Below, one piece after another: positions 4,521-58,013 of a DNA stretch of 64,000 nt. The stretch is taken from NCBI RefSeq assembly GCF_044324875.1, contig NZ_CP172185.1, one strand, 5' to 3'. The notes beneath the pieces were generated by a model. It was not told the origin of the DNA, did not search any database, and saw nothing but the letters and a program-made list of their open reading frames with translations. A program made the translations under genes and the position numbers. Positions within the stretch are counted from its first letter, which is position 1. Every line of letters starts with the position of its first letter. The DNA comes from Escherichia coli. Its GTDB lineage: Bacteria > Pseudomonadota > Gammaproteobacteria > Enterobacterales > Enterobacteriaceae.

Positions 4521-4596
4521 TGGTGGCCCCTGCTGGACTTGAACCAGCGACCAAGCGATTATGAGTCGCCTGCTCTAACCACTGAGCTAAGGGGCC
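4521..4596 (-). tRNA. ileX: tRNA with anticodon CAT of the Ile2 (lysidine-modified) type
   Basis: Reverse complement GGCCCCTTAGCTCAGTGGTTAGAGCAGGCGACTCATAATCGCTTGGTCGCTGGTTCAAGTCCAGCAGGGGCCACCA: 76 nt, cloverleaf-compatible, anticodon loop CUCAUAA, encoded CCA end. Confidence 0.9.
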
Positions 4597-16904: not shown

Positions 16905-17060
16905 ATGCGTGGAATTGTCAACGATTGCGTAGGCCGGATAAGGCGTTCACGCCGCATCCGGCAATCAACGCCTGATGCGACGCTCGCGCGTCTTATCAGG
17001 CCTACAACTGTCGTTGACATGTAGCCGGATAAGGCGTTTACGCCGCATCCGGCAAAATAT
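16905..17060. repeat. BIME: cluster of three REP palindromes between uppP and cca
   Basis: GCCGGATAAGGCGTTCACGCCGCATCCGGC (16934-16963), GCCTGATGCGACGCTCGCGCGTCTTATCAGGCCTAC (16971-17006) and a second GCCGGATAAGGCGTTTACGCCGCATCCGGC (17025-17054). Confidence 0.75.
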
Positions 17061-24921: not shown

Positions 24922-24949
24922 TTGACGCTGTTTTTTTTCAACCTAAAGT
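24922..24949 (+). promoter_or_regulatory. Sigma-70-type promoter of the repeat-1 antisense RNA: TTGACG-N16-TAAAGT
   Basis: -35 TTGACG (24922-24927), 16-bp spacer, -10 TAAAGT (24944-24949); duplicated in repeat 2. Confidence 0.5.
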
Positions 24950-24956
24950 AAAGGAA

Positions 24957-25104
24957 CAAGGGTGAGGGAGGATTTCTCCCCCCTCTGATTGGCTGTTAAT
25001 AAGCTGCGAAACTTACGAGTAACAACACAATCAGTATGATGACCAGCTTCATCATAACCCTTTCCTTATACAAGGCCCCTTCTTCGGGAGGGGCTTTCCC
25101 GTTT
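24957..25104 (+). ncRNA. sibE: Sib-family antisense sRNA (antitoxin), repeat 1; ends are approximate
   Basis: Inferred transcript from the promoter to an intrinsic terminator (8-bp stem GCCCCUUC / GGAGGGGC with UUCG tetraloop at 25075-25094, then a U-rich tract); fully complementary to the 19-codon ORF on the opposite strand. The D versus E label rests on recalled K-12 gene order. Confidence 0.55.
24996..25055 (-). CDS. ibsE: Ibs-family type I toxin, 19-aa hydrophobic peptide MMKLVIILIVLLLVSFAAY
   Basis: Minus-strand ATG ATG AAG CTG GTC ATC ATA CTG ATT GTG TTG TTA CTC GTA AGT TTC GCA GCT TAT TAA, preceded by SD AAGGAAAGGG. Below the 60-aa cutoff of the ORF track. Confidence 0.7.
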   Translation of the reverse strand: MMKLVIILIVLLLVSFAAY

Positions 25105-25296: not shown

Positions 25297-25325
25297 TTGA
25301 CGCTGATTTTTTTTCAACCTAAAGT
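25297..25325 (+). promoter_or_regulatory. Sigma-70-type promoter of the repeat-2 antisense RNA: TTGACG-N17-TAAAGT
   Basis: Same hexamers as repeat 1 with one extra base in the spacer. Confidence 0.5.
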
Positions 25326-25332
25326 AAAGGAA

Positions 25333-25481
25333 CAAGGGTAAGGGAGGATTTCTCCCCCCTCTGAATTGGTTGTTAATAAGCCTGGAAACTTACTAGTAAC
25401 AACACAATCAGTATGATGACGAGCTTCATCATAACCCTTTCCTTCTATAAGGCCCCTTCTTCGGGAGGGGCTTTCCCGTTT
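25333..25481 (+). ncRNA. sibD: Sib-family antisense sRNA (antitoxin), repeat 2; ends are approximate
   Basis: Promoter-to-terminator inference as for repeat 1 (hairpin at 25452-25471 with UUCG loop); complementary to the second 19-codon ORF. Confidence 0.55.
25373..25432 (-). CDS. ibsD: Ibs-family type I toxin, 19-aa hydrophobic peptide MMKLVIILIVLLLVSFQAY
   Basis: Minus-strand ATG ATG AAG CTC GTC ATC ATA CTG ATT GTG TTG TTA CTA GTA AGT TTC CAG GCT TAT TAA with the same SD as repeat 1. Confidence 0.7.
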   Translation of the reverse strand: MMKLVIILIVLLLVSFQAY

Positions 25482-28257: not shown

Positions 28258-28458
28258 ATGGATCATAGTCTTAATTCTTTAAATAATTTCGATTTCCTGG
28301 CGCGTAGTTTTGCCAGAATGCACGCAGAAGGTCGCCCGGTCGATATTCTGGCCGTTACTGGTAACATGGATGAAGAACATAGAACCTGGTTTTGCGCACG
28401 TTATGCCTGGTATTGCCAACAGATGATGCAAACCAGAGAACTTGAATTAGAACACTGA
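28258..28458 (+). CDS. glgS: Small surface-composition regulator GlgS
   Basis: 66-aa protein [66 protein letters not shown]; SD GGAGGA 8 nt upstream of the ATG. Confidence 0.9.
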
Positions 28459-28461
28459 TAT

Positions 28462-28486
28462 TACGGGCCGTCTGGCCCGTTTTTGT
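28462..28486. terminator. Rho-independent terminator after glgS, shared with the convergent ubiK
   Basis: ACGGGCC-GTCT-GGCCCGT followed by TTTTTG. Confidence 0.7.
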
Positions 28487-28492
28487 GTTGCT

Positions 28493-28792
28493 TTATTCTG
28501 CTTTATCAATAGGCGGGATAGCCGGAGGAGATTGAAGATCTGCTACCGAATTATTGCGCGCTTCCAGTTCACTGATGCGCTGCTCCAGTAATGCCAGTTT
28601 CTCACGAGTCCGTAACAGGACTTGCGTCTGTACGTCGAATTCTTCGCGGCTCACCAGATCGAGACGCGTCAGCTGCGCTTGTAGGGTTTGGCGGATTTTT
28701 TTCTCCACATCTTCCCCGAACTCCCTGATTCCTTTAGGCATTGATTCGTGAACCTGGCGAGCGATTTGCTCAATTTTTTTCGGGTCAATCAT
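28493..28792 (-). CDS. ubiK: Ubiquinone biosynthesis accessory factor (BMFP coiled-coil family)
   Basis: 99-aa protein [28 protein letters not shown]... from the ATG at 28792, which has SD AGGGAA; the track ORF extends 20 codons further upstream without an SD. Confidence 0.85.
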
Positions 28793-28913: not shown

Positions 28914-29160
28914 GCTTATTCTCAGGGCGGGGCGAAATTCCCCACCGGCGGTAAATCAACTCAGTTGAAAGCCCGCGAGCGCTTTGGGTGCGAACTCAAA
29001 GGACAGCAGATCCGGTGTAATTCCGGGGCCGACGGTTAGAGTCCGGATGGGAGAGAGTAACGATTCTGTCGGGCATGGACCCGCTCACGTTATTTTGGCT
29101 ATATGCCGCCACTCCTAAGACTGCCCTGATTCTGGTAACCATAATTTTAGTGAGGTTTTT
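28914..29160 (+). promoter_or_regulatory. sroG: FMN riboswitch (RFN element) in the ribB leader
   Basis: Conserved FMN-aptamer blocks present: CAGGGCGGGGCGAAAUUCCCCACCGGCGGUA, GCCCGCGAGCG, GCCGACGGUUAGAGUCCGGAUGGGAGA, followed by the expression platform and SD GAGG. Confidence 0.85.
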
Positions 29161-29851: not shown

Positions 29852-29888
29852 AAACCGAAGTTGTAGCAGGCTTCGGTTTTTATTTTTC
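29852..29888 (+). terminator. Rho-independent terminator of ribB
   Basis: AAACCGAAG / CTTCGGTTT stem followed by TTTTATTTTT. Confidence 0.75.
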
Positions 29889-31197: not shown

Positions 31198-32013
31198 ATG
31201 ACACCTTTAGTTAAGGATATCATCATGTCTTCAACACGTATGCCAGCATTGTTTTTAGGTCACGGTAGTCCGATGAACGTGCTGGAAGATAATTTGTATA
31301 CCCGCAGCTGGCAGAAGTTGGGGATGACATTGCCACGCCCGCAAGCGATTGTGGTGGTTTCGGCTCACTGGTTTACCCGTGGAACAGGAGTGACCGCGAT
31401 GGAGACGCCGCCCACGATTCATGACTTTGGTGGCTTCCCGCAGGCGCTGTACGACACGCATTATCCTGCTCCGGGTTCGCCTGCGCTGGCACAGCATCTG
31501 GTTGAGCTGTTAGCGCCGGTCCCGGTGACGCTGGATAAAGAAGCCTGGGGCTTTGACCACGGCTCGTGGGGCGTGCTGATTAAGATGTATCCTGACGCCG
31601 ATATCCCGATGGTGCAGTTGAGTATCGACAGTAGCAAACCTGCTGCCTGGCATTTCGAAATGGGGCGCAAACTGGCAGCGCTGCGAGATGAAGGAATAAT
31701 GTTGGTCGCCAGCGGTAACGTGGTGCATAACCTGCGCACAGTGAAGTGGCACGGTGATAGTTCACCGTATCCGTGGGCGACGTCGTTTAATGAGTATGTG
31801 AAAGCGAATCTGACGTGGCAAGGGCCGGTAGAGCAGCATCCTCTGGTGAATTATCTCGACCATGAAGGTGGCGCGTTATCGAACCCAACGCCAGAGCACT
31901 ATCTGCCGTTGTTGTATGTCTTAGGTGCGTGGGATGGGCAGGAGCCAATTACCATTCCGGTCGATGGTATAGAAATGGGCAGTTTAAGTATGTTGTCGGT
32001 GCAGATAGGCTAA
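31198..32013 (+). CDS. ygiD: 4,5-DOPA dioxygenase extradiol-like protein
   Basis: 271-aa ORF of the extradiol ring-cleavage dioxygenase class III family; an alternative in-frame ATG 9 codons downstream also has an SD. Confidence 0.85.
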   Translation: MTPLVKDIIMSSTRMPALFLGHGSPMNVLEDNLYTRSWQKLGMTLPRPQAIVVVSAHWFTRGTGVTAMETPPTIHDFGGFPQALYDTHYPAPGSPALAQHLVELLAPVPVTLDKEAWGFDHGSWGVLIKMYPDADIPMVQLSIDSSKPAAWHFEMGRKLAALRDEGIMLVASGNVVHNLRTVKWHGDSSPYPWATSFNEYVKANLTWQGPVEQHPLVNYLDHEGGALSNPTPEHYLPLLYVLGAWDGQEPITIPVDGIEMGSLSMLSVQIG

Positions 32014-32021
32014 TAAAAGAA

Positions 32022-32048
32022 CCCGAAGCCAGAACGACTGGCTTCGGG
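32022..32048. terminator. Bidirectional terminator between ygiD and dsbI
   Basis: 11-bp perfect stem CCCGAAGCCAG / CTGGCTTCGGG with AACGA loop; A/T-rich flank on the dsbI side. Confidence 0.65.
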
Positions 32049-32058
32049 TGTTGCTGAG

Positions 32059-32730
32059 TTAGCCTCTGACGATTTTAAGCGCCCATGCGCCACTCATAAT
32101 GACCAGCAGCACCAGACACATACCAAAAGCCAGCATACAAGCCTGAGCCATATTCATAAAATGCCATGGTGGTAGCAGATACCAGCCTTCAGATTGCTGA
32201 TACATTTCCACAAACCACTGTTGCGTGCTGCTCAGTGTGACGCCATCAGGAACGATTGGGGCGTCATAGCCGCAATCCCCGGTAGGCTTGAACCAATTTG
32301 GTGCCCACTGTGCCAGTGGCAGGTTAAAGGGAAAAGTTGGATCGGTAGAGCAACCCTGTACGCCAAACAGTGAATCGGGATCCGGATTATGTACTGCATG
32401 GTGGATATCGTTCAGTTTGAGCGAAAACTTCAGTCCCAAAATGCTGCCGTAAAATGCCATCACGCAGCCAATTAGCTTTAGGATGATGTTCTTTGGGTTG
32501 ATCGCTGCAACCAATCCTCCAATAACCATCACAAACATGGCGTAGCGAATGTATACACATTGCTCACAGGGTGCCATGTAGAGATAGATCTGGAAGAAAG
32601 AGTGCGCCAGGATAATTAACGCGCCCATCGCAATGGCCATTAACAACCACAAAAAACGTTGTTCTTGCCATCTTACCAGCGTATCCACCGGTGAAGTGCG
32701 AAGGTCTTTCCACATTCCCTTAATACCCAT
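32059..32730 (-). CDS. dsbI: DsbB-family membrane disulfide oxidoreductase, DsbL partner
   Basis: 223-aa membrane ORF with the CEQC motif; immediately downstream of dsbL. Confidence 0.85.
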
Positions 32731-32744
32731 AGCCTGTTTCCCTG

Positions 32745-33413
32745 TTATTTGCTTGCTAACTCGCGGATAAGGTCTGCCATTGAGTCAATAGATTTAATAC
32801 TCTTGGTGTAGATCAGGTATTTACCATTGACGACATACGCCGGAACGCCCTGGATTTTTGCAACTTCATAAGAGGCTTTCCATTTTTCCAGTGTTTCTTG
32901 AACCGCTGGTTCTTTCAGTGCCGCTTCAAAATCCGCCTGACTCATACCTGCGGCATCCAGACCGGTTTTGATAAAAGCAGCCGGATCTTTACCATCAGAC
33001 CAGCGTTCTTTTTTGTCATGATAAGCCGCGTAATAAGCAAACTTGGCTTTCTTAAACTGAGAGTTAGCATCAAATAAGGAAATGCCTGCTGCTTTATCTT
33101 TATTGATCAAGACCGCAAAGACTTCGCTTGCTTGTTTGCCGTATTCACCTTTTGTTTCCAGATGGAATGGAGTAAAAGCAACGATATCTTTCACTTTTTC
33201 CGATACCGGACCGGTAACCGCTTTGTCGTACTTGTAACAGAACGGGCAGGCGTAGCTAAATACCTTAATCAGCGTTTTGTCGGCATTCGGAATAGGTTTT
33301 TCCAGAACCATGTAATCCGTGCCTTCGGTAAATGCAGAAGCGGTAAATGAAACAGCCAAAGCTGCGGTAAGCAGTATGGTTTTAAATAGTGATGAGATCC
33401 CTAATTTCGACAT
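32745..33413 (-). CDS. dsbL: Periplasmic thiol:disulfide oxidoreductase, DsbA paralogue
   Basis: 222-aa ORF with signal peptide and the thioredoxin-fold active site CPFC. Confidence 0.85.
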
Positions 33414-33430
33414 TTTTATTCCCTTCTTAA

Positions 33431-35227
33431 TTATTTGAACATCTGTTGTGGACGGACTAACAGTGCACGATAGTGAGTCTGATTGGGTTTATCTGACAGC
33501 ACGTCGATTTCCACTTTCACTTCTTTGGTTTTGTAATCGATTTCGTTCAACTTACCGACGGTTGGCTGCCCGACATCGAACAAATGAATAGAACCACCGA
33601 AGCCAAACATGGTGTTACGGTCGGCTTGATATTCAATGATGGAGGTAATCGGGCTATAGAAATCGTAGCCACGTTCTTTACCGTATTCCCACACTTGCTG
33701 AACGGTGCCTTTCTTCTCATCAATCTTATATTCCACAAAGCGGGAGTATTTCATGGTTGGTAAGGCAGGTTGTTCCAGATGACGCCCATCGCCATTATCA
33801 AAAATGGTGAGCGTTCCTTTGCTGGAAATCCAGGCGGTATGCTGGGTGTAGGTAAAGTCGAAGTCTGAGTTTTCGCACAGGCCATTTTCGTTACAGGTAA
33901 TTGGCTTCCCGTTAGCATCAACCGGTTTCAGCAGCTTGCTGGCCAGCGGTTTTTCCCAACCTTTAGAGGGCGCAAGGATCCATTTCACTTGCTTATCACG
34001 ACCAATTTTCACAACACCCTGGTGGCGAGAGGAGAGGATGATTGAGTCATCTTTTGCGTCATAGGCGATTGAGTTAACGTGCGCCCAGTTACGACCTGGC
34101 CCTACACCCAGCGCGTCGCCGAACGGTGTATCTGGTTCCAGTTTTGCCTGTTGTCCTGCATGGGCAAGGTCAACGTTAACGCAAACTGCACCTGCATCCA
34201 GCGCGCCGAGCAGTGCATCGCGTTTCGGATCGAGGATCTTGGTCAGATCCCATACATCGACAACGCGACCAGATTTATCGACTTCGAGGATATGGTCACG
34301 AATGGTGGTGACGTGTACGCCGTCATCGCGACGGTAATTGCTCTTACCTACGCGCAACAATACTGTGCCATTAGGCGTCTCAATGGACTCATGAGTGGCG
34401 TCAGCAAATCCGCGCGGTAGTTTGTGATCTTCGAGCACCTGCCCCATCATGTCGAACTCGTACCAGTGCTGACCTTGTACAGCGGTAAAGGTGCCGCGTG
34501 GTGTTTCGCGGATACCCATCAGATAACCACGCTTGTTGATATCGCGGTCACGACCATCGTAGAAGGTGTTTTGATCCAACCACCAGCGGTATTCGCCTTC
34601 GGTATCGACGATAAAGGTGAATGGCGCGATATCAAAAGGGAGTGCGCCAGTTGCCGGACCCGCATCAAGGATACCGGCATTTTTATCTTTCTCACCATGC
34701 CAGTGGAGATCGGAACCTTGGGCGGTAAAGGTGTGGGTATTAACCAGATAGAGGCGATCTTCAAAACCCGGTGCGACTTTAATAACTTTGGTCTGTTGTA
34801 AATCGGAGATAGAGCGGTTATCCATGTAATTATTGACGATGGCCGAAGTGTGCACCACATAATCATCTTTCATGACCTTGCCGTTTTCTTTCCACTCAAC
34901 GGTCACTTTGTTAGCAAATTTCTGATAAAGACCAAAAATCGGTACACCATCATAAGTTTTTAGTGATTCCTGACCCACGGGATAGCTGATTTCTACGCCT
35001 TTTTCGCCCTTCCCATGGACGGTAACTTTGACATCAGAAATGACATGGCTATCTAAGTCAACCAAAGCGGTCAGTGGTGCATTGCCGTAGGGATCGACAA
35101 TGACCGCACCCAGTTGCCCGGCAGGTGGTGCGGGTTTAAAACCTGCTGCCATCACCCCCGGTGCTGACAAACCCAGAGTTATCGCCACAGCTCCGGCTAC
35201 CAGAGTTTTTCTATATTTATCAAACAT
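33431..35227 (-). CDS. assT: Periplasmic arylsulfate sulfotransferase
   Basis: 598-aa ORF with signal peptide and beta-propeller-like arylsulfotransferase sequence; first gene of the assT-dsbL-dsbI block. Confidence 0.88.
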   Translation of the reverse strand: MFDKYRKTLVAGAVAITLGLSAPGVMAAGFKPAPPAGQLGAVIVDPYGNAPLTALVDLDSHVISDVKVTVHGKGEKGVEISYPVGQESLKTYDGVPIFGLYQKFANKVTVEWKENGKVMKDDYVVHTSAIVNNYMDNRSISDLQQTKVIKVAPGFEDRLYLVNTHTFTAQGSDLHWHGEKDKNAGILDAGPATGALPFDIAPFTFIVDTEGEYRWWLDQNTFYDGRDRDINKRGYLMGIRETPRGTFTAVQGQHWYEFDMMGQVLEDHKLPRGFADATHESIETPNGTVLLRVGKSNYRRDDGVHVTTIRDHILEVDKSGRVVDVWDLTKILDPKRDALLGALDAGAVCVNVDLAHAGQQAKLEPDTPFGDALGVGPGRNWAHVNSIAYDAKDDSIILSSRHQGVVKIGRDKQVKWILAPSKGWEKPLASKLLKPVDANGKPITCNENGLCENSDFDFTYTQHTAWISSKGTLTIFDNGDGRHLEQPALPTMKYSRFVEYKIDEKKGTVQQVWEYGKERGYDFYSPITSIIEYQADRNTMFGFGGSIHLFDVGQPTVGKLNEIDYKTKEVKVEIDVLSDKPNQTHYRALLVRPQQMFK

Positions 35228-35677
35228 GGATATATCTCCTTATATAACGCAAATATATAATAATGATGAATATCGACTGTTGAGGTGGTGCTAATAAATT
35301 TGTTTTGTGAATTAAAATGTATTAATAATAATCGTTATGAATATTTTTACTGGTTTTAGATTTTTTGTATTTCTCTGTAACAAATATTTTCTTTTGGTCG
35401 ATACTAGGTGGGCAATATATCAATAACAATATTCAATATTGTGTAGTGTGATCCCAGCGACATTGTTTTTTAATTATTAAATCTATTTTTGATGCGGTGT
35501 TTGATATAAATAAACTTATAAAACAATAGGTTACAAAGTGATTTTATTGATTAATTTAATTACAGTATCGCTTACATATGACGATTTAATATTAAATTAG
35601 GAATTAATGTTAAATAAAAGTGATGGATGTGATTGATTATATATAGATGGGGGTGATGATTTGCGAAGTATAATAAA

Positions 35678-35698
35678 TTGCCCCGGTAAACGGGGCAA
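35678..35698 (-). terminator. Rho-independent terminator after ygiC
   Basis: TTGCCCCG-GTAAA-CGGGGCAA hairpin with a U-rich tract on the minus strand. Confidence 0.6.
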
Positions 35699-35710
35699 TA
35701 TTGAACAGTA

Positions 35711-36871
35711 TTACTCAACAAAAATATGCGGATAAAACCGAGACATATCCTGGGTGATCAACGCACGGTCTTCACGAATGCCAATTCCGGCAGGTTGATC
35801 GTTCACCAGCCAGCTACCAATCAGCATATAGCTGTCGCCGAATTTCGGTAACGGGTGGAATTGCTGAACAATCATCCCTTCTTCGCCATACGGACCTTCC
35901 GCTGCTTCAATGGTTTTGCCGTTCTCAATGATCGACACGTTTGCGCCTTCACGGGAGAAGAGCGGTTTAACCACATATTTTTCCATTTGCGGATGATCAT
36001 CTTCCGCAAAATAAGCGGGCAGCAGGTTCGGGTGATTCGGGAACATCTCCCACAACAGCGGTAGAAGCGCTTTGTTGGAGATAATGCTCTTCCACGCCGG
36101 TTCCAGCCAGCGTACGCCTGCATCCTCCAGCTTGGTGGAGAACATCTCACGCAGCATAAATTCCCACGGATACAGCTTGAACAGGTTAGAAATCACCTGA
36201 TCTTGTAAATCCGTGAACTGACCTTTTTCGCCTAAACCGATATCGTCGATGTAGAGGAATTCAGTAGCGATTTCAGCTTCTGTCGCGCAGTCCTGCAAAT
36301 ACTGGATGGTTCCGCGATCTTCCACCGTGTCGCGACAGCAGGTGAGATGCAGCAACTGGAAGCCATACTGTTCACGCAACTCGACAAAGCGATCGATTAG
36401 CTTTTCTTGCAGACTGTTAAACTGGTCGCTGCCTTCCGGCAGGTTACCGGCGTTAAGCTGATCTTCCAGCCAGATCCACTGAAAGAATGCGGCTTCATAC
36501 AGTGACGTTGGCGTATCGGCGTTATTTTCCAGAAGTTTAGGTTCGCCAGTACCATCCCACGCCAGATCAAGACGCGAATAAAGCGATGGCTGGTGAGTCA
36601 GCCATGACTGGCGCACAAAACTCCAGGTGTGTTTTGGAATGCGGAATTTGGTCATCAGCTCATCGCTGGCGATCACTTTTTCAACCACTTTCAGGCACAT
36701 CTGGTGCAGTTCGGCGGTGACTTCTTCCAGCTTTTCAACCTGGGCGAGGGTCAACTTGTAGTAAGCATCTTCACACCAGTACGGTTCGCCGTACATGGTG
36801 TGAAAATTGAAACCGTATTCGTGGGCTTTTTCGCGCCAGTCCGGGCGCTCGGTAATACTGACTCTTTCCAT
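35711..36871 (-). CDS. ygiC: ATP-grasp enzyme related to glutathionylspermidine synthetase
   Basis: 386-aa ORF with GspS-like synthetase-domain similarity; last gene of the tolC-ygiB-ygiC string. Confidence 0.9.
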
Positions 36872-43851: not shown

Positions 43852-45993
43852 TCAAAATTCCATTTTCACCGTGAATTGCACTTCACGCGGATCGCCAATC
43901 TGATTCCCCAGATTATTTGTGGCGATGGAAGAGGTGTAATACGTTTTATCAAACAGTTTTTTGACGTTTAATTGCAGTGTGACCGGATACTGCAATTTCA
44001 TTTTGTATGCGGCGAAGGCATCGGCAACGAAATAGCCTGGCAGATAATAGTCAGCCCCATTGGTTGCCGAACGACGGCTTACGCCATGTCCACCACCGCC
44101 AAACGTCAGTGTGTTATTGCCTGGCATGTTATGAATGTCATAGGTCAGGAATAGCGAACCGGTATGACGAGGAACATTCGGCAATGGTTTCCCTGCATAA
44201 TCAGGATCTTCCAGAACCTTAGCATCGGTATAGCCGTAGCTGGCAATGATATTAATGTTTTCAGTTAATGCTCCCGCAAGGTCGACTTCTACCCCTCTTG
44301 AACGAACGCGGCCTGCCGTTTTGGCGATGGTTTCATCACCAATACTTTCGGTATACAACACGTTACGTTTATGGATATCAAACAGCGCAATATCTGCGGT
44401 TATACCATCGAACAGCTCGAATTTTGCCCCGACTTCGTAAGCATTAGATGATTCCGGTGGAAGATCTCCGATGTAGCTGGCAATTGACGATTGCGGCATA
44501 AATGTTTGCGAATAATTAGCAAATAAGGATACCGATGGCGTCAGTTTGTAGACTAACCCCAGTTTGGGCGTCCATTGTTCATCGCGGCTGTCAGTATTGA
44601 CATTAAAAGGACGGCCTTTACCCGCATACTGCGTGTAATACTGATAGCGGATCCCGGCGACGGCAATCCAGTTATCGGTCAGATAGAGCGCGTCCTGTGC
44701 ATACGCTGAGTAGCTCTCCTGTTTGATCGTCTGATCGCTGTCCGACGCCGAGACAGTTGTGCATTTGCTGGTATTGCCGTAAACAGGGTTGTAGATATTG
44801 AAATCTTTAGCGTTTTTACAGCGAATCATATCTGTGCGCAGAAGATCATAATATTCATATGACACCCCACCCAGAATCTCATTATAGAACCCAGCAATAT
44901 CAACATTCCCTTGCAGATCCGCACGAGTAGCATGCATACGCTGGGTAGATCCCTGAGTTGCATCAACACGCCGTGTCAGCGTTCCTGTCGTTGCATCATA
45001 CGCGGTAACACGAGCCTGATTATCGCCGTATTTATCCTGGCTGTAGCTGTAATCAAAGCGCGCTGTCCACTGGCTATTGAGATGATATTCTGCGTTGAGT
45101 TGCGCCAGATCGGACTGACCATCTGTAATATTAAACGGTTCGTCAAAACGTATTTTTCGATCAACGTTTACGGGCTGTTTCGTCGTAAGGTCGAAAATCG
45201 TTCCACGATCGAACGGAGTTTTATAATCCCGATGGGAATAGAGCATGGTTACTGTTGCATTATCACCAAACCAGGTGAGTGATGGGGCAATAAATGTACT
45301 GCGCTCTTTACCAAAGTTTCGCCAGTAATCTTCATCCTGCACTTCCCCGGTAAGGCGATACGCCAGTTGAGTGCCTTCAATGGGGCCAGTGATATCAAGT
45401 TGCCCGGTGCCACCACCGAAACTGGAGGACGTGGCTGAGACAGAACCATGGAATGTTTTTTCCGGGCGTTTGGTCACGACGTTAATCAATCCACCAGGAT
45501 CGAGAATGCCATACAGCGTGGAGGCCGGGCCTTTTAGCACTTCCACACGTTCTGTGGCGGCGTTGAAACTGCGAGGAAGTACAGTTCGCAGGCCGTTGGT
45601 CATGATGGAGCCATCCCGGTTAGCACCAAACCCACGACGTACAAAGGCGTCCTGAGTTCCGCCTAATGTATTGGTCTGTACCACGTTACTGACGTTATAA
45701 AGCGCTTCATCCAGCGTCGTTGCATTCTGATTTTCCAGAACCTGATCGCTAACCGTATTGACCACCTGCGGGATATCCAGCATCGGCATATCGGTTAATG
45801 TCGCCGTGGAGGTGCTCAGAGGTTGATAACCATCGGTTGCTTCAGTTGCGGTATTTGCATCTGCTGTAACAGTGATTGTTTCGCCATCTTTGGTCGTTAC
45901 AGAGTCTGTTGCATGAATCATCGGTGCCGCAAAAAGCAGTGAAAAGAGCGCCCGACCTTTGAGTCCTGAGAATGAAGGTGTGAACATAGCCAT
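43852..45993 (-). CDS. TonB-dependent outer-membrane receptor (siderophore-type)
   Basis: 713-aa ORF with signal peptide, plug region and a beta-barrel ending in the aromatic C-terminal residue (...FTVKMEF). Confidence 0.85.
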   Translation of the reverse strand: MAMFTPSFSGLKGRALFSLLFAAPMIHATDSVTTKDGETITVTADANTATEATDGYQPLSTSTATLTDMPMLDIPQVVNTVSDQVLENQNATTLDEALYNVSNVVQTNTLGGTQDAFVRRGFGANRDGSIMTNGLRTVLPRSFNAATERVEVLKGPASTLYGILDPGGLINVVTKRPEKTFHGSVSATSSSFGGGTGQLDITGPIEGTQLAYRLTGEVQDEDYWRNFGKERSTFIAPSLTWFGDNATVTMLYSHRDYKTPFDRGTIFDLTTKQPVNVDRKIRFDEPFNITDGQSDLAQLNAEYHLNSQWTARFDYSYSQDKYGDNQARVTAYDATTGTLTRRVDATQGSTQRMHATRADLQGNVDIAGFYNEILGGVSYEYYDLLRTDMIRCKNAKDFNIYNPVYGNTSKCTTVSASDSDQTIKQESYSAYAQDALYLTDNWIAVAGIRYQYYTQYAGKGRPFNVNTDSRDEQWTPKLGLVYKLTPSVSLFANYSQTFMPQSSIASYIGDLPPESSNAYEVGAKFELFDGITADIALFDIHKRNVLYTESIGDETIAKTAGRVRSRGVEVDLAGALTENINIIASYGYTDAKVLEDPDYAGKPLPNVPRHTGSLFLTYDIHNMPGNNTLTFGGGGHGVSRRSATNGADYYLPGYFVADAFAAYKMKLQYPVTLQLNVKKLFDKTYYTSSIATNNLGNQIGDPREVQFTVKMEF

Positions 45994-46366
45994 TTAGTCT
46001 GTTATCCCAAAAACTCGCGGATTGTCGCGAGTGAAAATTGTTTCTTATTGCTCACTAAGCACTATCCGTTTGTTATTTCGCCATCGGATATGTAATTGAG
46101 AATCATTCAATCATGCGGTAATGTAGTAGTAAATGAGAAATAACAAAAAATTGCTACATGTGTTTTTATGAGAGGTTAATGCAATTCAATTGATGGTAAT
46201 TTATTAATATTTAATGATTTTATTTTTATCTTTAAAAAAATTTCACCTGTTATTTACCTTGTTTTTGTATGGCTTTTAACTTCTTGACTACTACATTTTG
46301 TGGCGTCAAACTCTCAAAGGAGAATGAGTTTTATTTTTGTTTGTCTTTGATTAAGTTGGCGTACAC

Positions 46367-47176
46367 GTGGCACATAACGCAAAAGGGCAGGGGCTGATCC
46401 TCGACAATGTTTCTGCCGGGTATCACAAGAAAATCATTGTTGATGGTGTTTCTTTCTCCGTTCCCACAGAAAAAATGACCGTTCTGGTTGGGGCAAACGG
46501 CTGTGGAAAGTCGACGTTGCTCAGCACCATTGCACGTATCTTGCAACCTATGGGCGGCTCGATATTGCTGGATGGTAAAGCGATTCACGAGCAACCAACG
46601 AAAGCGTTATCCCGTAGACTTGGGATCTTGCCGCAGTCGCCATTATTGCCGGAGGGCTTAACCGTTTATGAACTGGTGTCGCGTGGGCGTTTTCCCTGGC
46701 AGAATTTCATTCGTCAATGGAGCGACGCCGACGAGCAGGCGGTAGAAGAGGCCCTGAAATTAACCGGTACGCAGGAGTTTGCACATTTACCTGTTGAAAA
46801 ACTTTCTGGTGGGCAGCGCCAGCGTTGCTGGATTGCGATGGTGTTGGCGCAAAAGACGCCTTATATCCTACTGGATGAACCCACAACCTGGCTTGATTTA
46901 CGTTATCAGGTTGAAATTCTTGAGTTATTACATGATTTAACGCGTCATCACGGGCGTACAGTCGTCGTGGTGTTGCATGATCTGAATTTTGCCGTCAATT
47001 ATGGTGATACGTTGATATTTTTACGCCAGGGGAAAGTGGTGCGTGTGTTGAATGAGGGGGAGCATTGCACGCCTGAGCTGGTAAAAGCTGTCTTTGACGT
47101 TGATGTTCACGCATCAATAAATCCTCTGACGGGAAAGCCGTTCTTCATGCCGTTTCGTGGTGTAGAAAAAGTATGA
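46367..47176 (+). CDS. ABC transporter ATP-binding protein (iron-siderophore / FepC-FecE type)
   Basis: 269-aa ORF with Walker A GANGCGKST, signature LSGGQRQR and Walker B ILLDEPT; the start codon is GTG in the track and is uncertain. Confidence 0.85.
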   Translation: MAHNAKGQGLILDNVSAGYHKKIIVDGVSFSVPTEKMTVLVGANGCGKSTLLSTIARILQPMGGSILLDGKAIHEQPTKALSRRLGILPQSPLLPEGLTVYELVSRGRFPWQNFIRQWSDADEQAVEEALKLTGTQEFAHLPVEKLSGGQRQRCWIAMVLAQKTPYILLDEPTTWLDLRYQVEILELLHDLTRHHGRTVVVVLHDLNFAVNYGDTLIFLRQGKVVRVLNEGEHCTPELVKAVFDVDVHASINPLTGKPFFMPFRGVEKV

Positions 47177-48156
47177 TGCGCACAGGGCTGGTTACTGTAA
47201 TTTTCCTCGCCTTACTGCTGGTGGGATGCGTGGTATATCCAGGGATTGGTGCCCGATTTATTGCACCACAAACGGTGTTGCAGGCATTTCTTCATTTTGA
47301 TCCGCAAAACTTCGATCACAACGTAATTGTAAGACTCCGTTTGCCGCGTTTAGCGGCAGCATTGCTTACCGGTGCTTCTCTTGGAGTTGCTGGTGCTTTG
47401 TTGCAGGCTGTCATTCGTAACCCATTGGGGGAGCCACATATTTTAGGCTTAAATGCCGGAGCCGCTCTTGCTGTCGTTGCTGCCAGTGCGCTTGGGCTGG
47501 CCTTTCCGGTTGGACGCCCACTGCTGGCATCTACGGGCGGCGCGTTATTGTTCCTGTTGATATTGCTGCTTTCCTCCGCAGGGCGTTCAGGGTTAACGCC
47601 AATGAAAGTTACTTTATGCGGCGTGGCGCTATCGGCGTTCGTGTCCTCAATAACGGCTGCAATCCTGATTCTTGACGAACAAACACTGCTGGCGATGCGG
47701 ACATGGCTAGCAGGTGATTTAGCGGGGCAGGATTGGGCGACGCTGGGTACGTCCGCCTGGTTTTCTCTGGGGGGATTTGTGTTAGCCCTTTACCTTGCAC
47801 CCTCCCTTAACATGTTGGCACTGGGCGATCGCATGGCGCAGGGGCTGGGCGTCTCTGTACTCCGCACGCGAACATTCACCCTGCTTGCGATCGCGTTGCT
47901 CTGTGGCGCAGCCGTATCGATTGCTGGCCCCATTGGTTTTGTCGGCCTGCTAGTACCGCAGATTGTCCGGCGTCTGGTATCAGCGGATCTGCGCGTTCTG
48001 CTCCCTCTTTCAGCTTGTGTCGGCGCGCTTTTGTTATTACTGGCAGATATTATTGCCCGGACGCTTTTCACGCCCCATGAGTTAGCGACCGGTGTCATGA
48101 CGGCGTTAGTTGGTGCGCCTGTTTTTGTCATTATGGCGACGAGGATGTTCAAATGA
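47173..48156 (+). CDS. ABC transporter permease, FecCD family
   Basis: 327-aa polytopic membrane ORF with the FecCD-family signature; ATGA overlap with the upstream ATPase stop. Confidence 0.85.
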   Translation: MMRTGLVTVIFLALLLVGCVVYPGIGARFIAPQTVLQAFLHFDPQNFDHNVIVRLRLPRLAAALLTGASLGVAGALLQAVIRNPLGEPHILGLNAGAALAVVAASALGLAFPVGRPLLASTGGALLFLLILLLSSAGRSGLTPMKVTLCGVALSAFVSSITAAILILDEQTLLAMRTWLAGDLAGQDWATLGTSAWFSLGGFVLALYLAPSLNMLALGDRMAQGLGVSVLRTRTFTLLAIALLCGAAVSIAGPIGFVGLLVPQIVRRLVSADLRVLLPLSACVGALLLLLADIIARTLFTPHELATGVMTALVGAPVFVIMATRMFK

Positions 48157-49202
48157 GTCGGATAATGAACGTCGGGCTACGCCCACTACGTGTTGGTAAG
48201 TTTTCGACACTGGTACGCCCTAAAAATCTGGTGTTGCTTGGTGGGTTGTTTCTGTTTGCGGTTGGAATACTGATATTCGGTCTGATGCAGGGTTCTTTCT
48301 CCGTCCCGGCATCGGAAGTAGGACGAGCATTGTTCTCTCCAGAAAACGTAAGCACAGACGCACGTTATATTGTGCAGGATATTCGCTTGCCGAGAGTCAT
48401 CATGGCATTGCTATGCGGGGCCATGTTAGGTATGGCGGGGGCCGCGATGCAATCCATTGCGCGTAACGGCCTTGCCGATCCTGGTTTAATCGGCGTCAAA
48501 GAAGGATGTAGCGTGGCGGTGCTGTGGCTGATTTTCCAGTTTCCAATGCTGGGAATGTTCTGGCGTCCAGTGGCTGGTCTTGCTGGTGGCTTGTTGGTGG
48601 CTTTAATCGTGATTTTTTGTGCGCGCGATATTTCCCGCCCGCGATTTGTTCTGATTGGTATTGGTGTTTCCTGGTTTTTCGCCGCCGGTATCGGTGTATT
48701 TATGACCACTGCAGATGTTCGAGATGTACAAACTGCATTGATGTGGTTATCGGGAAGCCTGCATGCAGCTAACTGGATGTTAGTCGGTATTTCAGCCTGT
48801 TGGATGTTGCCAGCCGCTCTTTTATTGCTGTTCACCGCCAGGGCGGCGGATATCGCTCTGCTTGGTCATCAGGTTGCAACCGGGTTAGGGGTGAATAGTT
48901 CTCGTCTGGCGTTGTTACGTGTCGCCGCACCCATAATCCTGACAGCCGTCTGCGTTTCGTGTGTTGGTAACATCGGTTTTGTCGGATTGATAGCACCCCA
49001 TATATCACGTTTTATTCTACGTGGCGGGCAGACGACATTACTGCTGGGGAGCGCCGTATCGGGGGCGTTGTTAGTCATCCTGGCGGATAGCATTGGTCGT
49101 TTGGCTTTTTTGCCTTTGCAACTGCCTGCCGGAATCATTATTTCATTGATTGGTGGACCATTCTTTTTGCTACTGCTCTGGCAGCGCAGGAACAGTTTTT
49201 AA
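48153..49202 (+). CDS. ABC transporter permease, FecCD family (second copy)
   Basis: 349-aa polytopic membrane ORF; ATGA overlap with the first permease. Confidence 0.85.
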   Translation: MSRIMNVGLRPLRVGKFSTLVRPKNLVLLGGLFLFAVGILIFGLMQGSFSVPASEVGRALFSPENVSTDARYIVQDIRLPRVIMALLCGAMLGMAGAAMQSIARNGLADPGLIGVKEGCSVAVLWLIFQFPMLGMFWRPVAGLAGGLLVALIVIFCARDISRPRFVLIGIGVSWFFAAGIGVFMTTADVRDVQTALMWLSGSLHAANWMLVGISACWMLPAALLLLFTARAADIALLGHQVATGLGVNSSRLALLRVAAPIILTAVCVSCVGNIGFVGLIAPHISRFILRGGQTTLLLGSAVSGALLVILADSIGRLAFLPLQLPAGIIISLIGGPFFLLLLWQRRNSF

Positions 49203-49212
49203 TGGGAGTTAT

Positions 49213-50160
49213 ATGCGTTTATTTTTTTCTCTGCTGATACTGTTGTCATTCTTTGCCCGCGCGACAGAACCTGTTCAGGTCTTTACTGATGATTTAGGGC
49301 GCAAAGTCACTGTTCCTGCTCATCCAAAGAGAATTGTCTCTTTACACGATCTTGATATCACTATTCCTCTGATTGAGCTCGGTGTACCTCCTGTCGCCAG
49401 CCACGGGCGAACCCGGCCTGACGGTAGCCATTTCATTCGATCAGGCGCGTTATTGACAGGTGTCGACTTTGATAATTCATCGATCGCTTTTATTGGCACC
49501 GCTGATATTGATATTGAAGCGATTGTGGCGGCAAAACCTGACCTGATCATCACAGAACCGACCCGTAATACGCCCATTGAACAACTGGAAAAAATTGCGC
49601 CCACGGTGAGCATTGATCATCTCAAAGGAGGCGCGCCAGAAATCTACCGCAAGCTGGCAGAACTTACAGGAACGCAGTCGCAGCTGGCGATACTTGAACG
49701 CCGCTATCAGGCACAAATCAATGCGCTGAAGGCGACGCTGGACAGCCAAAAAATAACGGTATCGGTGATTCAGGCAAATCAGGGAAAAATTAATGTGATG
49801 CATAGCTATCATTCGCTGGGGCGGGTATTACGCGATGCTGGTTTTCGCTTTCCGCCGCTGATTGAGAGCATTCCTGAAGGTGGGCGAATGGATGTGAGCG
49901 CAGAGCGTTTACCTGAACTGGATGCCGATTTTGTTTTTGCAACCTGGCGCGGTGACACCGGTGGTAAACCTCAGGATGAGCTGGCAGCAATGGAAAAAGT
50001 CATGCCGGGATGGTGTCAGTTTCTGACGGCCTGTCGTTCCGGGCGCTATGTGCTGATTTCTCGTGAAGAGGCGATTTCTAACTCCTTTGCATCTCTGGGG
50101 CTGATGGCTGCGCAGATACAATCACAAATTGCGGGACGACCTCTACCGGAGGCTAAATGA
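49213..50160 (+). CDS. Periplasmic substrate-binding protein (FhuD/FecB-like)
   Basis: 315-aa protein from the ATG at 49213 with SD GGGAG and signal peptide MRLFFSLLILLSFFARA; the track ORF start at 49150 overlaps the permease. Confidence 0.8.
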   Translation: MRLFFSLLILLSFFARATEPVQVFTDDLGRKVTVPAHPKRIVSLHDLDITIPLIELGVPPVASHGRTRPDGSHFIRSGALLTGVDFDNSSIAFIGTADIDIEAIVAAKPDLIITEPTRNTPIEQLEKIAPTVSIDHLKGGAPEIYRKLAELTGTQSQLAILERRYQAQINALKATLDSQKITVSVIQANQGKINVMHSYHSLGRVLRDAGFRFPPLIESIPEGGRMDVSAERLPELDADFVFATWRGDTGGKPQDELAAMEKVMPGWCQFLTACRSGRYVLISREEAISNSFASLGLMAAQIQSQIAGRPLPEAK

Positions 50161-51044
50161 TCCAGAAAGACAAAACGCGGGTTGATATTTATGGTGAGCG
50201 TTTTCGCACTCGCGCGAGTCAGTTAACGCCTGGGTTAAGAACTGTCGCAAGCTACATTAATGAGCATCGTGAAGTGGTACTCGAGCAAACGGCGATGGAA
50301 ATTGCGGCCACGTTGAACACTTCCGATGCCACAGTTATCAGGGCTATACAGGCTCTGGGGTTTGCCGGGCTGCGTGATCTGAAACGCACTCTGGAACAGT
50401 GGCTTGGTCCAGCCCTTAGTTCCAGCGAAAAGATGTCTACGACGGTGAGTAACTTGACGAGCGATGTTAACACCGCAATCGACTTTGTTCTTGAAGGGCA
50501 TTTGTATACTTGTAATGTCCTGTCAGAGCCTGAAAACCGCCACGCGCTTGCGCAAGCTGTAGCGTTGTTGGTGCAGGCACGGCAAGTCGCTATTTTTGGC
50601 ATTGGCGCTTCGGGTATCCTGGCGGACTATACCGCACGACTATTCAACCGCATAGGTTTGCCTGCCACGGCACTAAACCGTACGGGTATTGGCCTTGCCG
50701 AGCAACTGATCGCGCTTCAACGTGGCGATGTTCTGATCATGATGGCGCAAAAATCTGCGCACCGGGAAGGGCTGACAACGCTTCGTGAGGCGAGGCGGCT
50801 GGGGATCCCTGTTATTTTGCTGACAAACGCGCTGGATTCACGTTTTAGCAAAGACGCCAGTATCGTGATTCATGTTCCGCGCGGGGATGAAAAGGGGAAA
50901 ACGCCACTACATGGTACGGTATTGTTGTGCCTGGAAATGATTGTTTGGTCGGTGGCTTCCGCGATGCCGCAGCGTGCGGTTAAAACCATTAAGCGAATTA
51001 ACGATTTCCATCGGGGTTTGAAAACGGGAAGAAAGAATGGCTAA
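50157..51044 (+). CDS. RpiR/MurR-family transcriptional regulator (HTH_6 plus SIS domain)
   Basis: 295-aa ORF with N-terminal RpiR-type HTH and a SIS sugar-phosphate-binding fold; ATGA overlap with the binding-protein stop. Confidence 0.8.
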   Translation: MIQKDKTRVDIYGERFRTRASQLTPGLRTVASYINEHREVVLEQTAMEIAATLNTSDATVIRAIQALGFAGLRDLKRTLEQWLGPALSSSEKMSTTVSNLTSDVNTAIDFVLEGHLYTCNVLSEPENRHALAQAVALLVQARQVAIFGIGASGILADYTARLFNRIGLPATALNRTGIGLAEQLIALQRGDVLIMMAQKSAHREGLTTLREARRLGIPVILLTNALDSRFSKDASIVIHVPRGDEKGKTPLHGTVLLCLEMIVWSVASAMPQRAVKTIKRINDFHRGLKTGRKNG

Positions 51045-51052
51045 TCTGACCT

Positions 51053-55209: not shown

Positions 55210-55754
55210 TGAAGAATCTTTACCGGAGTGTGAGCCAAATCACTCGCGATAAGTTTGAGCGAATAATGCCACAGGCGTATTGTTGTTGGGCTTATAATTT
55301 CTCCGGTAAGGAATACCATGTATACGCGAAATTTATTATCCGGTGCGCCGTAAGCCGTCTCGAGGGTACCCATGAGCAGGCCGCACTTATGGCAGGAGGC
55401 GCGGGGCACAGGTGGAGACACTGCTAAGCTGGGCTGAACCGTATACTTACAGACGACTACTTTGATGCTTTAGGCTTCCCTGGACTCGCATAACCTCAAC
55501 TTCTCGAATCGCCCGGTGCGGACCCGCATGCCGAGTGGTGTGGCATGGGCGCAACCTTGTGTTGCCCCCTATGCCGATCAAGTCTACAGCAAAGAGTTGT
55601 ATATCAAGACACATTGATGTCTTTATCGCCGTCGGAGCACGTCCGGCGGCGCTATTCACGCTGATCTCCTGTGACTCGACGCGGCAGATAATGTAGTATC
55701 TCCGGCAATATTGCCCCTTTGAAGGCTGGCGAATAAGTTGAGGAATCAGAATTA

Positions 55755-58013
55755 ATGAGCGATATGGCAGAGCGCCTTGCGCTACATGAATTTACGGAAA
55801 ACGCCTACTTAAACTACTCCATGTACGTGATCATGGACCGCGCGTTGCCGTTTATTGGTGATGGTCTGAAACCTGTTCAGCGCCGCATTGTGTATGCGAT
55901 GTCTGAGCTGGGCCTGAATGCCAGCGCCAAATTTAAAAAATCGGCCCGTACCGTCGGTGACGTACTGGGTAAATACCATCCGCACGGCGATAGCGCTTGT
56001 TATGAAGCGATGGTCCTGATGGCGCAGCCGTTCTCTTACCGTTATCCGCTGGTTGATGGTCAGGGGAACTGGGGCGCGCCGGACGATCCGAAATCGTTCG
56101 CAGCAATGCGTTACACCGAATCCCGGTTGTCGAAATATTCCGAGCTGCTATTGAGCGAGCTGGGGCAGGGGACGGCTGACTGGGTGCCAAACTTCGACGG
56201 CACTTTGCAGGAGCCGAAAATGCTACCTGCCCGTCTGCCAAACATTTTGCTTAACGGCACCACCGGTATTGCCGTCGGCATGGCGACCGATATTCCACCG
56301 CATAACCTGCGTGAAGTGGCTCAGGCGGCAATCGCATTAATCGACCAGCCGAAAACCACGCTCGACCAGCTGCTGGATATCGTGCAGGGGCCGGATTATC
56401 CGACTGAAGCGGAAATTATCACTTCGCGCGCCGAGATCCGTAAAATCTACGAGAACGGACGTGGTTCAGTGCGTATGCGCGCGGTTTGGAAGAAAGAAGA
56501 TGGCGCGGTGGTTATCAGCGCATTGCCGCATCAGGTTTCAGGTGCGCGCGTACTGGAGCAAATTGCTGCGCAAATGCGCAACAAAAAGCTGCCGATGGTT
56601 GACGATCTGCGCGATGAATCTGACCACGAGAACCCGACCCGTCTGGTGATTGTGCCGCGTTCCAACCGCGTGGATATGGATCAGGTGATGAACCACCTCT
56701 TCGCAACCACCGATCTGGAAAAGAGCTATCGTATTAACCTCAATATGATCGGTCTGGATGGTCGTCCGGCGGTGAAAAACCTGCTGGAAATCCTCTCCGA
56801 ATGGCTGGTGTTCCGCCGCGATACCGTGCGCCGCCGACTGAACTATCGTCTGGAGAAAGTCCTCAAGCGCCTGCATATCCTCGAAGGTTTGCTGGTGGCG
56901 TTTCTCAATATCGACGAAGTGATTGAGATCATTCGTAATGAAGATGAACCGAAACCGGCGCTGATGTCGCGGTTTGGCCTTACGGAAACCCAGGCGGAAG
57001 CGATCCTCGAACTGAAACTGCGTCATCTTGCCAAACTGGAAGAGATGAAGATTCGCGGTGAGCAGAGTGAGCTGGAAAAAGAGCGCGACCAGTTGCAGGG
57101 CATTTTGGCTTCCGAGCGTAAAATGAATAACCTGCTGAAGAAAGAACTGCAGGCAGACGCGCAAGCCTACGGTGACGAACGTCGTTCGCCGTTGCAGGAA
57201 CGCGAAGAAGCGAAAGCGATGAGCGAGCACGACATGCTGCCGTCTGAACCTGTCACCATTGTGCTGTCGCAGATGGGCTGGGTACGCAGCGCTAAAGGCC
57301 ATGATATCGACGCGCCGGGCCTGAATTATAAAGCGGGCGATAGCTTCAAAGCGGCGGTGAAAGGTAAGAGCAACCAACCGGTAGTGTTTGTTGATTCCAC
57401 CGGTCGTAGCTATGCCATCGACCCGATTACGCTGCCGTCGGCGCGTGGTCAGGGCGAGCCGCTCACCGGCAAATTAACGTTGCCGCCTGGAGCGACCGTT
57501 GACCATATGCTGATGGAAAGCGACGATCAGAAACTGCTGATGGCTTCCGATGCGGGTTACGGTTTCGTCTGCACCTTTAACGATCTGGTAGCGCGTAACC
57601 GTGCAGGTAAGGCTTTGATCACCTTACCGGAAAATGCCCATGTTATGCCGCCGGTGGTGATTGAAGATGCTTCCGATATGCTGCTGGCAATCACTCAGGT
57701 AGGCCGTATGTTGATGTTCCCGGTAAGCGATCTGCCGCAGCTGTCGAAGGGCAAAGGCAACAAGATTATCAACATTCCATCGGCAGAAGCCGCGCGTGGA
57801 GAAGATGGTCTGGCGCAACTGTACGTTCTGCCGCCGCAAAGCACGCTGACCATTCATGTTGGGAAACGCAAAATTAAACTGCGTCCGGAAGAGCTACAGA
57901 AAGTCACTGGCGAACGTGGACGCCGCGGTACGTTGATGCGCGGTTTGCAGCGTATCGATCGTGTTGAGATCGACTCTCCTCGCCGTGCCAGCAGCGGTGA
58001 TAGCGAAGAGTAA
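55755..58013 (+). CDS. parC: DNA topoisomerase IV subunit A
   Basis: 752-aa ORF with the active-site region ...AAMRYTE... Confidence 0.97.

Follow-up and report, generated by a model that had tools for sequence, protein, structure and literature searches.

The assT-dsbL-dsbI genes encode an aryl-sulfate sulfotransferase together with its own pair of disulfide-forming proteins. We analysed a window of 64,000 nucleotides of Escherichia coli DNA (assembly GCF_044324875.1, contig NZ_CP172185.1), in which these genes lie on the minus strand at positions 32059-35227, between ygiD and ygiC. We conclude with high confidence that this block is the chromosomal assT-dsbL-dsbI operon already described in Salmonella and in the uropathogenic E. 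coli strain CFT073, and an old resident of its chromosomal neighbourhood. The identity of the proteins, the distribution of the block among E. coli genomes, the order of the surrounding genes and the boundaries and hairpins of the block are read directly from the sequences compared. The K-12 lineage lacks the block, and its absence there is probably a secondary loss.

Gene content and boundaries of the block

The block comprises assT (33431-35227, minus strand, 598 aa), dsbL (32745-33413, minus strand, 222 aa, with the motif YACPFCYK) and dsbI (32059-32730, minus strand, 223 aa, with the motif APCEQCVY). All three open reading frames are intact, agree exactly in coordinates with the first-pass annotation of this DNA and equal their RefSeq counterparts in length. 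The intergenic gaps measure 14 and 17 bp and each contains a Shine-Dalgarno-like sequence, which fits a single tricistronic operon. The block is flanked on the dsbI side by ygiD (31198-32013, plus strand; NCBIfam equivalog, 534 bits) and on the assT side by ygiC (35711-36871, minus strand).

The gene identities proposed in the first-pass annotation are borne out by profile and structure matches, and the CPFC and CEQC motifs it named can both be read in the translated frames. AssT, with a signal peptide at residues 1-27, is of the periplasmic type of aryl-sulfate sulfotransferase that works independently of 3'-phosphoadenosine-5'-phosphosulfate (PAPS). It matches Pfam families Arylsulfotrans (PF05935, E 1.4e-135, residues 146-587) and Arylsulfotran_N (PF17425, E 2.6e-28, residues 42-127), the latter being the N-terminal Ig-like domain, and thus combines the beta-propeller and the N-terminal Ig-like domain expected of the bacterial ASST family. 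Residues 28-598 are identical to PDB 3ELQ, the AssT of CFT073, at 570 of 571 positions (1336 bits). The alignment to 3ELQ contains the catalytic His436 and the pair Cys418-Cys424 in mature numbering (ITCNENGLCENSDFDFTYTQHTAW); the two cysteines are residues 445 and 451 of the precursor. None of the NCBIfam models matched AssT, and its identity therefore rests on Pfam and PDB.

DsbL aligns over residues 28-222 with E. coli DsbL (PDB 3C7M, 422.8 bits) and also with Salmonella DsbL (PDB 3L9U, 407 bits). It belongs to Pfam DSBA (PF01323), has its CPFC active site at Cys56/Cys59 and qualifies as a member of DsbL. Against the equivalog model of canonical DsbA (NF008198) it scores 78.3 bits, well below the cut-off of 279, which marks it as a paralogue of DsbA and not as DsbA itself. 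DsbI exceeds the cut-off of its own NCBIfam equivalog (NF003304, 418.8 bits against 212) and falls below that of the DsbB model (83 bits against 157). It belongs to Pfam DsbB (PF02600) and contains CEQC at Cys55/Cys58 and a second pair, Cys127/Cys153, which by analogy with DsbB is probably periplasmic.

Each end of the block is marked by a hairpin. The terminator of dsbI, and hence of the operon, is a 12-bp perfect stem at 32049..32021 (minus strand) followed by the T-tract TCTTTTATT, with a folding energy of -23.5 kcal/mol (z -7.4). The terminator of ygiC at 35699..35677 (minus strand) has a 9-bp stem and a T-rich tail and folds at -15.1 kcal/mol (z -4.5); it shields assT from read-through out of ygiC. 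The first-pass description of a block set between two hairpin terminators holds in both places. The part that differs between strains also takes in the two hairpin spacers and the 483-bp AT-rich regulatory spacer 5' of assT, and the strain-variable segment therefore extends over 32014-35710 (3,697 bp). Its G+C content is 44.9%, with 43% in dsbL and 26.5% in the spacer at 35228-35710, against 51.5% in the window.

No transposase, integrase or tRNA gene lies at the block, the nearest tRNA being at 4524-4596, and a search for direct or inverted repeats at its boundaries found none, in keeping with the earlier remark that mobility genes are missing from the flanks. No Rfam family matched inside the block. 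Carriage on plasmids was considered and rejected: the sole "plasmid" records containing the block, of 4.9 Mb and 0.73 Mb, are mislabelled chromosomes. With neither recombinase, repeats, tRNA or att site nor copies on mobile replicons, the assT block lacks the marks of a mobile genomic island. It is not a mobile element and represents a clean case of a strain-variable segment without mobility machinery.

The biochemistry proposed for the window proteins is carried over from characterised proteins to which they are nearly identical. AssT would be exported to the periplasm, where it would take sulfuryl groups from phenolic sulfate esters and pass them to phenolic acceptors without PAPS, in a ping-pong reaction presumably proceeding through transiently sulfated His436. 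The co-transcribed DsbL, through its CPFC site, would introduce the required intrachain disulfide Cys418-Cys424 into AssT, and DsbI, a membrane-bound paralogue of DsbB, would re-oxidise DsbL. The operon has its own AT-rich regulatory region and its own terminator. In the literature, AssT is a periplasmic homodimer that works by a ping-pong mechanism via sulfo-His436 and possesses a single essential disulfide (PMC13426309), placed at 418-424 and accompanied by a DsbL with a CPFC site and a potential of -95 mV (PMC8405906); the same two papers establish the roles of these residues. DsbL is the dedicated oxidase of AssT, and DsbL and DsbI are co-expressed from the assT operon (PMC8405906, PMC13426309, PMC6067686).

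The CFT073 operon shares with the window the same three genes, their order, orientation and chromosomal slot, and identical catalytic and redox residues. It differs in the 483-bp spacer, which is about 76-78% identical, and in its coding DNA, which is 2.4-3.6% apart. Despite these nucleotide differences only two to four amino acids differ per protein (4 of 598 in AssT, one of them owing to an ambiguous base in the CFT073 record, 2 of 222 in DsbL and 3 of 223 in DsbI), which indicates purifying selection. The CFT073 operon was reportedly described by Grimshaw et al. (2008, J Mol Biol 380:667) and Malojcic et al. (2014, Biochemistry 53:1870). The cluster of Salmonella enterica has the same operon architecture, with the AssT, DsbL and DsbI of S. 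arizonae 86%, 88% and 85% identical; the regulatory core and Shine-Dalgarno region are conserved and the terminator is homologous. The Salmonella cluster, however, occupies the slot between yqiD and ribB and not that between ygiC and ygiD, and nothing in it corresponds to the distal half of the E. coli spacer.

The DsbA/DsbB system of K-12 has the same folds and the same electron path, from a periplasmic thioredoxin-fold CXXC oxidase to a DsbB-type membrane protein. DsbL and DsbI differ from it in their CPFC and CEQC active sites and in scoring below both canonical cut-offs, and also in being dedicated to, and co-transcribed with, one substrate (PMC8405906, PMC13426309). More distant relatives are found in Campylobacter. 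AssT homologues (40-47% identity) adjoin DsbL-like (45-63%) and DsbI-like (51-57%) genes on many Campylobacter contigs, in a different gene order and orientation, at low identity and often with two assT paralogues. Many oral and gut Campylobacter genomes have one or two assT homologues beside such genes. These clusters indicate that the linkage of the enzyme with a dedicated oxidase recurs far outside Enterobacterales.

Distribution of the block and history of its slot

The block is a strain-variable segment that is either present or absent at one fixed place in the chromosome. Of the 5,426 complete E. coli genomes compared, 1,508 (about 28%) have it, each with at least 80% of its length covered, and 3,917 have the K-12-type empty junction. 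The occupied and empty states together account for 5,425 of the 5,426 genomes, and no third state was seen at the ygiC-ygiD site among them. The carriers contain 1,510 places matching the block, at most two in a genome, and some genomes thus have two copies. The first-pass annotation stated that K-12 lacks the block, and in K-12 MG1655 the stop codons of ygiC and ygiD are indeed separated by only 37 bp, which form a perfect hairpin. The same annotation suggested a comparison of this interval across genomes and took an equal frequency in K-12-like commensals and other lineages as evidence against its view; no such equality appears, and the K-12 derivatives are among the empty genomes. Its suggestion that the window comes from a strain other than K-12 agrees both with this absence and with the perfect match of the block to strain M7424 of sequence type 69 (ST69).

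Carriers include CFT073, UTI89, ST131 and O18 strains, Nissle 1917 (EcN) and an O127:H6 strain, along with animal and environmental isolates and the ST69 Shiga-toxin strain M7424. Sampled empty sites come from K-12 derivatives, ATCC 8739, O157:H7, O91:H21 and the turkey septicaemia strain 789. The association with extraintestinal pathogenic E. coli (ExPEC) made in the first-pass annotation needs refining: uropathogens do carry the block, but Nissle 1917, the O127:H6 strain and the ST69 Shiga-toxin strain M7424 are carriers as well. The block is associated with lineage and not with extraintestinal pathogenicity or pathotype as such.

Lineages were approximated with a chimeric query of arpA and assT, which matched 5,283 genomes at 5,600 places, at most two per genome. 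About 1,190 carriers are without arpA and about 315 have both markers. We take the Clermont scheme to assign arpA-negative genomes to phylogroups B2, F and G and regard arpA-positive carriers as D-like, arpA being the sole marker tested. The block is at least 99% identical to that of the window in 58 genomes, a minority group in which it co-occurs with arpA. ST69 belongs to phylogroup D, and the presence of the closest assT alleles in arpA-positive genomes fits ST69 and this phylogroup. The block is 100% identical to that of M7424, an O77g:H18, ST69, stx2d-positive clinical isolate (PMC13188871).

To reconstruct the history of the slot, species-representative genomes were scanned and gene order was tabulated with tblastn. 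The order ygiC / assT dsbL dsbI / ygiD is found in E. coli, E. whittamii, Escherichia sp. MOD1-EC7003 and Pseudocitrobacter, and both junctions, ygiC-assT and dsbI-ygiD, are also seen in E. albertii. Salmonella arizonae, at least six Citrobacter and Intestinirhabdus have the order ygiC ygiD zupT yqiD / assT dsbL dsbI / ribB. The slot in Salmonella and Citrobacter is about 2 kb away, with the 6-kb neighbourhood and the orientation unchanged. The proximal ~240 bp upstream of assT travel with the genes and are recognisably conserved in Salmonella and Citrobacter. The dsbI terminator (CCCGAAGCCAG...CTGGCTTCGGG) is homologous to the terminator shared by dsbI and ribB in Salmonella and Citrobacter and also to the E. 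coli ribB terminator (29853..29878, plus strand), a second copy of the same family that marks the Salmonella/Citrobacter slot. E. coli thus has two copies, and the duplication suggests that the block moved between slots together with a copy of the terminator. In the zupT-ribB spacer the window and K-12 agree at 98.6% identity; being common to a carrier and a non-carrier, the vacated slot is older than the split between them. At all five sampled empty sites (K-12, O157:H7, 789, KSC1031 and JNEC-KY179) the spacer is one homologous 37-bp sequence, which points to a single origin of the empty allele.

The most parsimonious history has two steps. The block would be an old resident of the tolC-ribB neighbourhood in Escherichia, Salmonella and Citrobacter, relocated in an ancestor of Escherichia. 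A 37-bp hairpin resembling repetitive extragenic palindromic (REP) elements would then have replaced it, once, in an E. coli sub-lineage that presumably corresponds to today's phylogroups A, B1, C and E, including K-12 (labels following the Clermont scheme). The absence in K-12 is read as a loss because the synteny in other Escherichia, Salmonella and Citrobacter suggests an old resident. The divergence of the 3' end of ygiD (7-8% from K-12) was considered as an old haplotype tied to occupancy and rejected: over this stretch the window differs from the empty-site O157:H7 at 3 of 200 positions and from K-12 at 15 of 200. The divergence belongs to the K-12/789-type ygiD allele and not to occupancy.

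Several observations weigh against this interpretation of the block. In about 143 genomes both arpA and the block are missing, and the pattern of presence therefore does not correspond to one clean branch. Neither end of the block has any sequence in common with the 37-bp hairpin, which is thus not a simple deletion scar. It resembles the REP-like hairpin between ygiC and ygiD of Salmonella arizonae (TGCCGGATGGC), and the empty configuration could on this account be old or have been re-imported by recombination. The literature searched gives no physiological substrate or role for AssT, which, along with the loss of the block from most E. coli, would also agree with the operon of the window being a decaying remnant whose genes no longer work. 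Decay is nevertheless highly improbable. The reading frames are of full length, the differences from CFT073 are mostly synonymous, the catalytic histidine, active-site cysteines, signal peptide, ribosome-binding sites and terminator are all intact, and not one of the 1,508 carriers retains less than 80% of the block.

The unrelatedness of the 37-bp spacer to the block ends and its similarity to the S. arizonae spacer also lend themselves to the opposite polarity, in which the block was gained horizontally, as a virulence or fitness islet, by extraintestinal pathogenic lineages at an empty ygiC-ygiD junction and the K-12 state is ancestral. The G+C content of the block, lower than that of its surroundings and lowest in the spacer, would agree with such a gain, as would a published statement that commensal and enteric pathotypes lack the operon (PMC6067686). 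Three further Escherichia species or lineages, however, also have the block in this slot, and in Salmonella and Citrobacter its orientation is unchanged and its place lies within the same 6 kb. The scar between yqiD and ribB is common to carriers and non-carriers, strains other than ExPEC are among the carriers, and neither mobility genes, att-like repeats nor genuine plasmid copies accompany the block. We consider a horizontal gain unlikely, and long residence followed by loss in the K-12 lineage remains our preferred reading.

The spacer upstream of assT

The regulatory spacer of assT (35228..35676, minus strand; 483 bp when counted to 35710) consists of conserved islands between hypervariable stretches. 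It is sharply bimodal in the 1,508 carriers: 261 are at least 95% identical to the window, 1,247 are about 76-78% identical and none falls between. The larger group includes CFT073, Nissle 1917, ST131 and the O127:H6 strain. Compared with CFT073, the spacer has 17-39 differences per 100 bp, against 0-11 in the rest of the locus and 0-2 in other intergenic spacers. The spacer of E. whittamii is of the window type (89% identity to the window, against 76% for CFT073), and those of E. albertii and MOD1-EC7003 are only 50-60% identical to that of the window, which indicates that the spacer evolves fast throughout the genus.

Conservation is concentrated in three parts of the spacer. A core at 35400..35471 (minus strand), conserved in Escherichia, Salmonella and most Citrobacter, contains an imperfect inverted repeat (AACAATGTC ... 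AATATTGTT) and a candidate sigma-70 promoter at 35401-35429 (minus strand), TTGTTA-17-TAGTAT, which agrees with the consensus at 8 of 12 positions and lies below the threshold of the scan. The consensus promoter scan of the spacer returned nothing convincing, with 5 sites against 7.8 expected, and it is by its conservation that this sequence is a putative promoter. Within Escherichia, the last ~70 bp before the assT start codon are conserved too, and conservation of the Shine-Dalgarno region just 5' of that codon extends to Salmonella. H-NS is a repressor and LeuO an activator of the cluster in Salmonella Typhi (PMC4264507, citing Gallego-Hernandez et al. 2012), and comparable control of the E. 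coli operon may be supposed from the Salmonella case.

Two regulatory alleles are thus in circulation. Genomes of the arpA-positive, ST69-like group have one of them, which is similar to that of E. whittamii, and CFT073, ST131, ST95 and Nissle-type strains have the other. The window-type spacer may have been imported from another Escherichia lineage by short-tract homologous recombination, acting as a regulatory switch. The gap between the two identity classes, a divergence about ten times that of the flanking DNA and the window-type allele of E. whittamii all speak for an import. On the other hand, a spacer evolving fast across the genus could yield alleles that are simply old lineage-specific variants, and the two groups are 2.4-4% apart in the coding block as well. 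We regard import as possible and somewhat doubtful. It is a tentative idea, on the doubtful side, that the two alleles, about 23% apart, cause the conditions of operon expression to differ between the two main ExPEC-rich lineages. No description of a functional switch between two such alleles was found in the accessible literature searched. If the alleles do differ in H-NS/LeuO control or in promoter use, they would exemplify regulatory switching without a change in gene content.

The remainder of the window and the significance of the block

Outside the block, the window is colinear with M7424, and its relationship to other genomes varies along its length. At least 25 genomes, ST69 strains among them, match positions 23-39 kb at about 100.0% identity. 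The best identity to a complete genome is 98.6% for 1-22 kb and 99.3% for 40-64 kb. The flanks are only 98.6-98.9% identical to M7424, with a patchy distribution of mismatches, and M7424 was accordingly rejected as the strain of origin. The window is a mosaic relative to its closest complete genomes. Divergence from M7424 peaks in the 5' part of parC (~56000-57000), with 80 mismatches per kb after 32 per kb in the preceding bin, which suggests a recombinant allele in the parC/ygiV region.

Colinearity with the M7424 annotation places a siderophore-type cluster between ygiN and parE (~43853-51045), comprising a MurR/RpiR regulator, a substrate-binding protein, two FecCD permeases, an ATPase and a TonB-dependent receptor. 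The 40-64 kb part of the window is covered to at least 80% in only 1,866 of 5,425 genomes, and this sparse coverage suggests that the siderophore-type region may be another strain-variable segment. By the same annotation, glgS directly follows ubiK (~28258-28792), whereas in K-12 ubiK is followed by the fimbrial genes ygiL and yqiG, the latter disrupted by IS2. The gap between parC and ygiV (~55211-55755) measures just 545 bp. In K-12 this latter interval presumably contains ygiS-mqsA-mqsR. Rfam matches in the window comprise two SIB RNAs (24922-25070 and 25297-25447), near which Ibs toxin genes are annotated in M7424, a flavin mononucleotide (FMN) riboswitch upstream of ribB (28914-29062), naRNA4 (16932-17002) and the tRNA at 4524-4596.

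The assT-dsbL-dsbI system is already known and has been characterised structurally and biochemically, and nothing new on its function is added here. The operon is a textbook example in the Dsb field and serves as a read-out in screens for DsbA inhibitors (PMC7810732, PMC6067686). What goes beyond the accessible literature is modest: a slot differing from that of Salmonella and Citrobacter, a duplicated terminator and two sharply different alleles of the spacer. For the window, the block provides a quick marker of origin from a lineage other than K-12, near phylogroup D and ST69.

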